Positions 1-1,727 of a stretch of 1,727 nt of DNA are shown piece by piece. The notes below the pieces were generated by a model. That model saw only the letters and a list, made by a program, of their open reading frames with translations, was not told the DNA's origin and made no database searches. How positions within the stretch are numbered: the stretch's first letter is position 1; each line of letters starts with the position of its first letter. Where the stretch lies: the NCBI RefSeq assembly GCF_003334815.1, contig NZ_QOWO01000094.1. One strand, written 5' to 3'. The DNA comes from Escherichia coli (GTDB lineage: Bacteria > Pseudomonadota > Gammaproteobacteria > Enterobacterales > Enterobacteriaceae). The translations under genes were made by a program, and so were the position numbers.

Positions 1-1727
1 CTATGACAACCGTGGCCGGTTAACCTCGGTGAAAGACGCACAGGGCCGTGAAACGCGGTATGAATACAACGCCGCAGGCGACCTGACTGCCGTTATCACC
101 CCGGACGGCAACCGGAGCGAGACACAGTACGATGCGTGGGGAAAGGCGGTCAGCACCACGCAGGGCGGGCTGACGCGCAGTATGGAGTACGATGCTGCCG
201 GACGTGTCATCAGCCTGACCAACGAGAACGGCAGCCACAGCGTCTTCAGTTACGATGCGCTGGACCGGCTGGTACAGCAGGGCGGCTTTGACGGGCGGAC
301 GCAACGTTATCATTATGACCTGACCGGAAAACTCACACAGAGTGAGGATGAGGGACTTGTCATCCTCTGGTACTACGATGAATCGGACCGTATCACTCAC
401 CGCACGGTGAACGGCGAACCGGCAGAGCAGTGGCAGTATGATGAGCACGGGTGGTTAACCACCCTCAGCCATACCAGTGAAGGCCACCGCGTGTCGGTCC
501 ACTACGGCTATGACGATAAAGGCCGCCTGACCGGCGAATGCCAGACGGTGGAGAACCCGGAGACGGGGGAACTGCTGTGGCAGCATGAGACCGGACATGC
601 GTACAACGAACAGGGGCTGGCAAACCGCGTCACGCCGGACAGTCTGCCGCCGGTGGAGTGGCTGACCTACGGCAGCGGCTATCTTGCGGGCATGAAGCTG
701 GGCGGGACGCCGCTGCTGGAGTTCACGCGCGACCGCCTGCACCGTGAGACGGTGCGCAGCTTCGGCAGCATGGCAGGCAGTAATGCCGCATATAAACTGA
801 CCAGCACATACACCCCCGCAGGCCAGTTACAGAGCCAGCACCTGAACAGCCTGGTGTATGACCGTGACTACGGGTGGAATGACAACGGCGACCTGGTGCG
901 CATCAGCGGCCCGCGACAGACGCGGGAATACGGCTACAGCGCCACGGGCAGGCTGGAGAGTGTGCGCACCCTCGCACCAGACCTGGACATCCGCATCCCG
1001 TATGCCACGGACCCGGCGGGCAACCGGCTGCCGGACCCGGAGCTGCACCCGGACAGTACACTCACAGTGTGGCCGGATAACCGCATCGCGGAGGATGCGC
1101 ACTATGTCTACCGCCACGATGAATACGGCAGGCTGACGGAGAAGACGGACCGCATCCCGGCGGGTGTGATACGGACGGACGACGAGCGGACCCACCACTA
1201 CCACTACGACAGCCAGCACCGCCTGGTGTTCTACACGCGGATACAGCATGGCGAGCCACTGGTCGAGAGCCGCTACCTCTACGACCCGCTGGGACGGCGA
1301 ATGGCAAAACGGGTCTGGCGGCGGGAGCGTGACCTGACGGGGTGGATGTCGCTGTCGCGTAAACCGGAGGTGACGTGGTATGGCTGGGACGGAGACAGGC
1401 TGACGACGGTGCAGACTGACACCACACGTATCCAGACGGTATACGAGCCGGGAAGCTTCACGCCGCTCATCCGGGTCGAGACAGAGAACGGCGAGCGGGA
1501 AAAAGCGCAGCGGCGCAGCCTGGCAGAGACGCTCCAGCAGGAAGGGAGTGAGAACGGCCACGGCGTGGTGTTCCCGGCTGAACTGGTGCGGCTGCTGGAC
1601 AGGCTGGAGGAAGAAATCCGGGCAGACCGCGTGAGCAGTGAAAGCCGGGCGTGGCTTGCGCAGTGCGGGCTGACGGTGGAGCAACTGGCCAGACAGGTGG
1701 AGCCGGAATACACACCGGCGCGAAAAG
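1..1727 (+). CDS. Rhs-family YD-repeat protein, internal core fragment (partial at both ends; reading phase has the first complete codon at nt 2, last complete codon ends at nt 1726). Polymorphic toxin shell/core region; the toxin tip is not in the window.
   Basis: Seen in sequence: the frame starting at nt 2 is open across the entire window (575 codons, no stop), which is why it is missing from a stop-to-stop/ATG-based ORF track. The translation begins [50 protein letters not shown]... and contains repeated xxGxxxRYxYDxxGRL(I/T) units, e.g. [79 protein letters not shown]. Established knowledge: this is the Rhs/YD-repeat signature, and the protein closely matches the E. coli Rhs core as I remember it. 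The paralog (rhsA/B/C/D-type) cannot be assigned from memory, so the symbol is left empty. Confidence 0.95.

Follow-up and report, generated by a model that had tools for sequence, protein, structure and literature searches.

The window analysed here, a 1,727-nt stretch of Escherichia coli DNA considered at its full length, encodes the central part of the YD-repeat shell in an RhsD/E-type Rhs protein. Taken as a whole, our results make it likely that this shell fragment is a repeat-bounded, collapsed contig and that it comes from two gene copies which trade an internal patch by gene conversion. According to this explanation, the genome would carry two D/E core copies that are identical over the window range except for a patch of 436 nt, and a short-read assembler would stop at both window ends, where it would meet two alternative continuations, one per copy. 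The copies would exchange segments by homologous recombination without crossover, and such exchange would keep the flanks identical while moving the patch between sites.

Rhs cores form the YD-repeat shell of polymorphic toxins, which end in a variable C-terminal toxin. In the 1,727-nt window, the list of open reading frames showed that frame +2 is open across all 575 codons and runs off both ends. Against the NCBIfam model RHS_core (NF041261), which has 1261 positions, the translation scored 1261 bits and matched positions 583-1156. This is under the 2000-bit whole-protein cut-off of the model only because the window is a fragment; the full-length W60 gene, which differs from the window by two amino acids over its range, scored 2770 bits. 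Three stretches of TIGR01643 YD_repeat_2x (91 bits, cut-off 15.8) and four matches to Pfam RHS_repeat PF05593 at E<=0.001 were also detected in the window. In the closest full-length genes, the motif PxxxxDPxGL is located at residue 1249 and the Rhs-associated core domain TIGR03696 is present outside the window range, which stops at residue 1153. The window also aligned to the central YD-repeat shell of three solved Rhs cocoon proteins, namely P. aeruginosa Tse5 (8cp6), a Photorhabdus Rhs (7q97) and a Salmonella bongori Rhs core (8qjd), with E values from 2e-54 to 9e-30; these are distant relatives, compared here by sequence, and the window does not reach the toxin or the cleavage motifs.

The G+C content of the window was 63%. 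At the homologous locus of W60, G+C fell from 64% in the core to 41% in the toxin tip, with 46-47% in the neighbouring genes, and a high-G+C core within low-G+C surroundings is the known composition of Rhs elements (PMC2935791). Comparison of the window with itself gave short, chance-like DNA matches only, none of them meaningful, so that the YD repeats are not repeats at the DNA level and the repetition is between loci. Several antisense open reading frames lie opposite the Rhs frame, one of 285 aa at window 827-1684 on the minus strand and several of 120-144 aa; most likely they arise as by-products of the 63% G+C coding region and are not genes.

Megablast of the window against 5,426 complete E. 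coli genomes gave matches in 3,872 of them, at 22,086 places (median 6, maximum 9 per genome), nearly all chromosomal and 16-18 on plasmids, and about 29% of the genomes had no match. The best matches, in six genomes, were 99.9% identical (two mismatches), and none was exact; four of these six genomes were ETEC17xx strains. In the largest class of complete genomes (1,783 records), the best match was just 90-95% identical, which points to a further diverged lineage of D/E-type cores. Compared with the window, K-12 rhsD (b0497) was 97.5% identical, with all 43 mismatches inside window 444-879, and the K-12 rhsE pseudogene (b1456) was 99.84% identical, covering positions 455-1727 only, against 78.4-78.6% for K-12 rhsA, rhsB and rhsC, where the longest exact match was 30-32 nt. 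These values place the window in the RhsD-E subfamily, which is listed beside the RhsA-B-C-F subfamily in PMC2935791. It has the reading frame of K-12 rhsD and rhsE, occupies the same part of the core (CDS 1734-3460) and is likewise G+C-rich (63%), and it differs from them in combining an rhsE-type patch with two rhsD-type alleles (539 and 583); K-12 rhsE in addition lacks window positions 1-454. K-12 rhsA, rhsB and rhsC are of the same family and have a collinear core; they are 96.7-99.5% identical to one another over the homologous stretch and are classical rearrangement hot spots (PMC2935791). Their identity to the window is only 78.5%, and no exact match exceeds 32 nt. On these grounds we rejected them as a mapping or recombination hazard; it is unlikely that they would attract short reads of the window or recombine efficiently with it.

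The near-identical copies of the window usually number two per genome, one at the rhsD site (ybbP-ybbC) and one at the rhsE site (yncH-ydcD), about 1 Mb apart and in the same orientation. The second copy in each genome was placed by synteny; at five further places, the neighbouring genes confirmed the site. In related genomes, the rhsE-site gene lies between vgrG (upstream) and ydcD (downstream), and ybbC follows the gene at the rhsD site. The VgrG gene next to the rhsE-site gene belongs to a type VI secretion system. In W60, F95, 6409 and ETEC1730, the two copies were 97.4-99.3% identical across the window range. The first-pass annotation had described the window as likely multi-copy Rhs core sequence, and the NF041261 match together with the 22,086 places in 3,872 complete genomes bears this out; it had further expected several near-identical kilobase-scale copies, and near-identical copies do exist but there are two per genome, not several.

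Both loci showed signs of decay in some strains. At the rhsE site, a full-length gene with vgrG ahead of it is present in W60, F95, 6409 and ETEC1730. In K-12, the rhsE match begins at window 455, inside the variable patch, and the upstream vgrG is lacking (L004, 3891-5939). At the rhsE site of KL53, the gene is N-terminally truncated and vgrG is missing (L012, 3326-7048), which is another independent decay of the locus. The rhsD gene of W60 is annotated as a pseudogene with an internal stop, and it is one base from K-12 rhsD, at CDS 1006 (L008, 18433-22713). In every genome examined, ydcD at the rhsE site is closely followed on its downstream side by ISAs1-family (H-repeat) transposase genes, of which one is decayed and the other intact (L001, 12138-14504, and the corresponding stretch of L010, L015 and L017).

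Comparison of the copies divided the window into two shared segments and the variable patch between them (Table 1). Strain 6409 had a single rhsD/rhsE difference in the shared right segment, at window 1541. The patch occurs as two haplotypes, alpha, the type of K-12 rhsD, and beta, the type of K-12 rhsE, which are about 10% divergent although the surrounding sequence is identical. The genes rhsA, rhsB and rhsC were rejected as donors of a patch haplotype; of the 45 sites, rhsA agrees with alpha at 20 and with beta at 23. A third haplotype, gamma, was noticed in the rhsD of strain 210221272, with variants at CDS 1182-2151 (L011, 2825-7105), and in the rhsE-site gene of ETEC1730 it reaches only CDS 1733 (L017, 3268-7491).

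Table 1. Segments of the window, and agreement of the two D/E copies of strain ETEC1730 along the coding sequence
Feature	Window	Strand	CDS	Description
Internal fragment of RhsD/E-subfamily Rhs core gene	1..1727	+	1734-3460 (W60, F95, K-12)	Frame 2; codons 579-1153 of a 1,407-1,426-aa protein
Left shared segment	1..443	+		Identical in rhsD-site and rhsE-site copies of one genome (W60, F95, ETEC1730)
Variable patch, 436 nt	444..879	+		Two haplotypes, 45 differing sites, 12 amino-acid changes
Micro-conversion tract (probable)	506..591	+		Alpha alleles 539 and 583 inside beta patch
Right shared segment, 848 nt	880..1727	+		rhsD-site copy identical to rhsE-site copy in K-12, W60, F95, ETEC1730
ETEC1730 D versus E	before 1		...1716, 1733	Differ
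ETEC1730 D versus E	1-443		1734-2176	Identical
ETEC1730 D versus E	444-879		2177-2612	Differ (patch)
ETEC1730 D versus E	880-1727		2613-3460	Identical
ETEC1730 D versus E	after 1727		3461 onward	Differ

The window is the entire contig QOWO01000094.1 (1,727 nt) of the draft assembly GCA_003334815.1, and its 575-aa translation is RCR41173.1, "RHS repeat protein, partial [Escherichia coli]", the sole exact record. At the 3' end, the D-type and E-type tails part immediately after the window, their first difference being at CDS 3461. The base preceding window position 1 (CDS 1733) is polymorphic, as first seen in the third haplotype of strain 210221272, and a synthetic junction of the third haplotype with the window start found a 100% match in at least eight complete genomes, including ETEC17xx strains. 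The rhsE-site copy of ETEC1730, a related genome and not the source, equals the window except at sites 539 and 583, and both window ends abut the D/E divergence points of this genome. A polymorphic base on both flanks occurs in 4 of the 2,021 possible 1,727-nt placements in the core (0.2%), a figure that uses nine copies picked during the analysis and not with the contig ends in mind. Because the ends coincide with the D/E divergence points in ETEC1730, the contig is most probably repeat-bounded and collapsed in GCA_003334815.1. Related genomes suggest a second copy in the source genome, for which no complete genome is a true stand-in. Two versions of the collapse fit: either both copies share all 1,727 nt, or they share the flanks and the assembler followed one branch, the beta-type middle. 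Under both versions, at least window 1-443 and 880-1727 would represent two loci.

Breaks of this kind are known from other draft genomes. Among the 11,336 members of the 90% protein cluster are many Rhs fragments that fill a whole contig of a draft assembly, and the draft-assembly fragment P0011 ends at residue 1153, as the window does. In de novo assemblies of a K-12 derivative, rhs elements accounted for 5 of 62 common contig breaks (PMC3045373). As a repeat-induced break, the window acts like the IS elements, rRNA operons and tufA/tufB genes that interrupt contigs in E. coli drafts, but the rhs repeat consists of two protein-coding paralogs that differ in an internal variable patch, and it is neither a mobile element nor an rRNA operon. 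It could be argued that the window is single-copy in its source, the other D/E copy being absent or truncated, and that the contig ended through coverage drop-out in 63% G+C DNA or at a neighbouring insertion sequence. Copy content does vary, as the truncated K-12 rhsE and the N-terminally truncated rhsE-site gene of KL53 illustrate, and roughly 29% of complete genomes are without any match. Nevertheless, both contig ends abut exactly the divergence points of ETEC1730, as expected for 0.2% of random placements, and another draft fragment ends at the same residue, so that we regard a single-copy origin as quite unlikely and retain collapse of two copies as the explanation.

Within the patch, the window carries beta at 43 of the 45 sites. 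The remaining two, 539 and 583 (Cys180 and Gln194), are adjacent informative sites and carry alpha alleles. Exact search of 5,426 complete E. coli genomes did not recover the patch haplotype of the window, and its unique 36-mer (575-610) had no match in three collections of genome, metagenome and viral contigs. A single conversion tract of 45-86 nt probably accounts for both alleles. The alternative is that they are a consensus artefact, produced from mixed reads of the two copies. Such an origin would agree with the haplotype being unique to contig QOWO01000094.1, with a contig that probably draws reads from two copies, and with the position of 539 and 583 among the most isolated variant sites of the patch. 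It has to reckon with the beta allele kept at 592, only 9 nt from 583, since a k-mer graph could switch back over this distance only with k<9; for two random errors, the probability that both equal alpha at informative sites is about 7e-5, given 45 such sites in 1,727 nt. For this reason we consider the consensus artefact unlikely and the conversion tract probable. Popping of a bubble in a de Bruijn graph was likewise judged an unlikely origin of the two alleles, beta being retained 9 nt from 583.

The assignment of the window to one site was considered with the flanks of its closest relatives. The same 99.9% match was found at the rhsE site (yncH-vgrG-rhs-ydcD) in W60 and at the rhsD site (ybbP-rhsD-ybbC) in F95, and these two genes are identical over the window and over the whole of CDS 460-3460. 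In W60 and K-12, the rhsD site has the alpha patch and the rhsE site the beta patch; F95 shows the opposite, with beta at rhsD and alpha at rhsE (L002, 7268-11548; L010, 13851-18074). Compared with K-12, W60 and ETEC1730, the F95 patch swap looks reciprocal within one genome and not like a one-way conversion. Because the same match occurs at both sites in different strains and the patch, as the sole stretch that discriminates between the copies, is exchanged in many strains, the window is not assignable to the rhsD or the rhsE site without its flanks.

Typing of 111 informative sites in nine D/E copies revealed five differing breakpoint patterns. In the rhsD of strain 6409, the patch is beta up to its 34th informative site and alpha beyond it (L014, 2825-7105). 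The rhsE-site gene of the same strain has a D-type 5' region (L015, 3268-7491), and for this reason the two 6409 copies are exactly identical over their first 2,448 nt. In the rhsE-site gene of SCEC020007, the tail past CDS 3461 starts with 21 D-type informative sites before turning E-type (L013, 2825-7048); therefore the supposedly locus-specific tail also moves between sites. We counted the records whose best place was at least 99% identical to each combination of patch and tail, a count that may include partial mosaics. The beta patch with the E tail was the most frequent (983 records), followed by alpha with the D tail (513), alpha with the E tail (191) and beta with the D tail (36). A non-K-12 combination was thus present in at least 227 of about 1,700 informative records. 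All four combinations occur in many unrelated strains, with patch and tail just 848 nt of identical sequence apart, which is the signature of repeated exchange between two loci.

The mosaics might themselves be doubted, as products of assembly or polishing errors in "complete" genomes and not of biological exchange. Short-read polishing can copy variants between near-identical repeats, and the reciprocal look of the F95 swap is unusual for simple gene conversion. Mis-polishing should, however, give ragged mixtures, whereas whole 45-site blocks move intact here and their breakpoints are sharp and differ; the non-K-12 combinations come from 36 + 191 records of unrelated hosts, countries and laboratories; and the gene, at about 4.2 kb, is under the typical size of a long read. 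We therefore hold it very unlikely that the mosaics are technical and treat them as biological exchange. As to mechanism, we infer gene conversion, that is, homologous recombination without crossover between the paralogs, because the loci are direct repeats about 1 Mb apart that appear to exchange sequence without rearrangement. Import of DNA from another strain, integrating at the wrong (ectopic) site, would look the same. The first-pass annotation had held that the window could not be given to a paralog without flanking sequence, that it was at risk of assembly collapse and that it was a substrate for recombination. The 99.9% match at both the W60 rhsE site and the F95 rhsD site establishes the first point; the risk appears to have materialised in a draft of which the window is a whole contig with its ends on the ETEC1730 D/E divergence points; and the block mosaics, with five breakpoint patterns and four patch/tail combinations, agree with the last.

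Repeats, collapse and recombination at Rhs cores are established biology. The rhs elements owe their name to unequal recombination, which yields duplications (Capage and Hill, 1979, as cited in PMC3150448; Lin, Capage and Hill, 1984, as cited in PMC3150448 and PMC2935791), and crossover products are known from the literature for rhsA-rhsB (PMC3150448). Recombination within an rhs locus has also been selected experimentally in Salmonella (PMC3967940). Directly seen in our comparison are mosaic, conversion-like exchanges and not crossover rearrangements. Within the literature covered, which is incomplete and has the older Hill-group papers outside it, we found no paper that quantifies core exchange between rhsD and rhsE, nor one on "ectopic gene conversion" together with rhs, nor any that mentions assembly GCA_003334815.1. 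We tentatively propose, with slightly less than even confidence, that core exchange between rhsD and rhsE is common in natural E. coli, apparently reciprocal swaps of the 436-nt patch included, and that the patch could act as a shell module open to selection and not as neutral variation.

These findings have practical and evolutionary consequences. The contig is unfit for use as a single-copy locus, for SNP calling or typing, and for assignment to rhsD or rhsE by sequence alone, and variants called in window 444-879 may mirror exchange between paralogs and not descent. The concerted evolution of the rhsD and rhsE cores, with an internal patch passing between them, also means that rhs genes found at the same chromosomal position in different strains should be taken as simple orthologs only with reservation.
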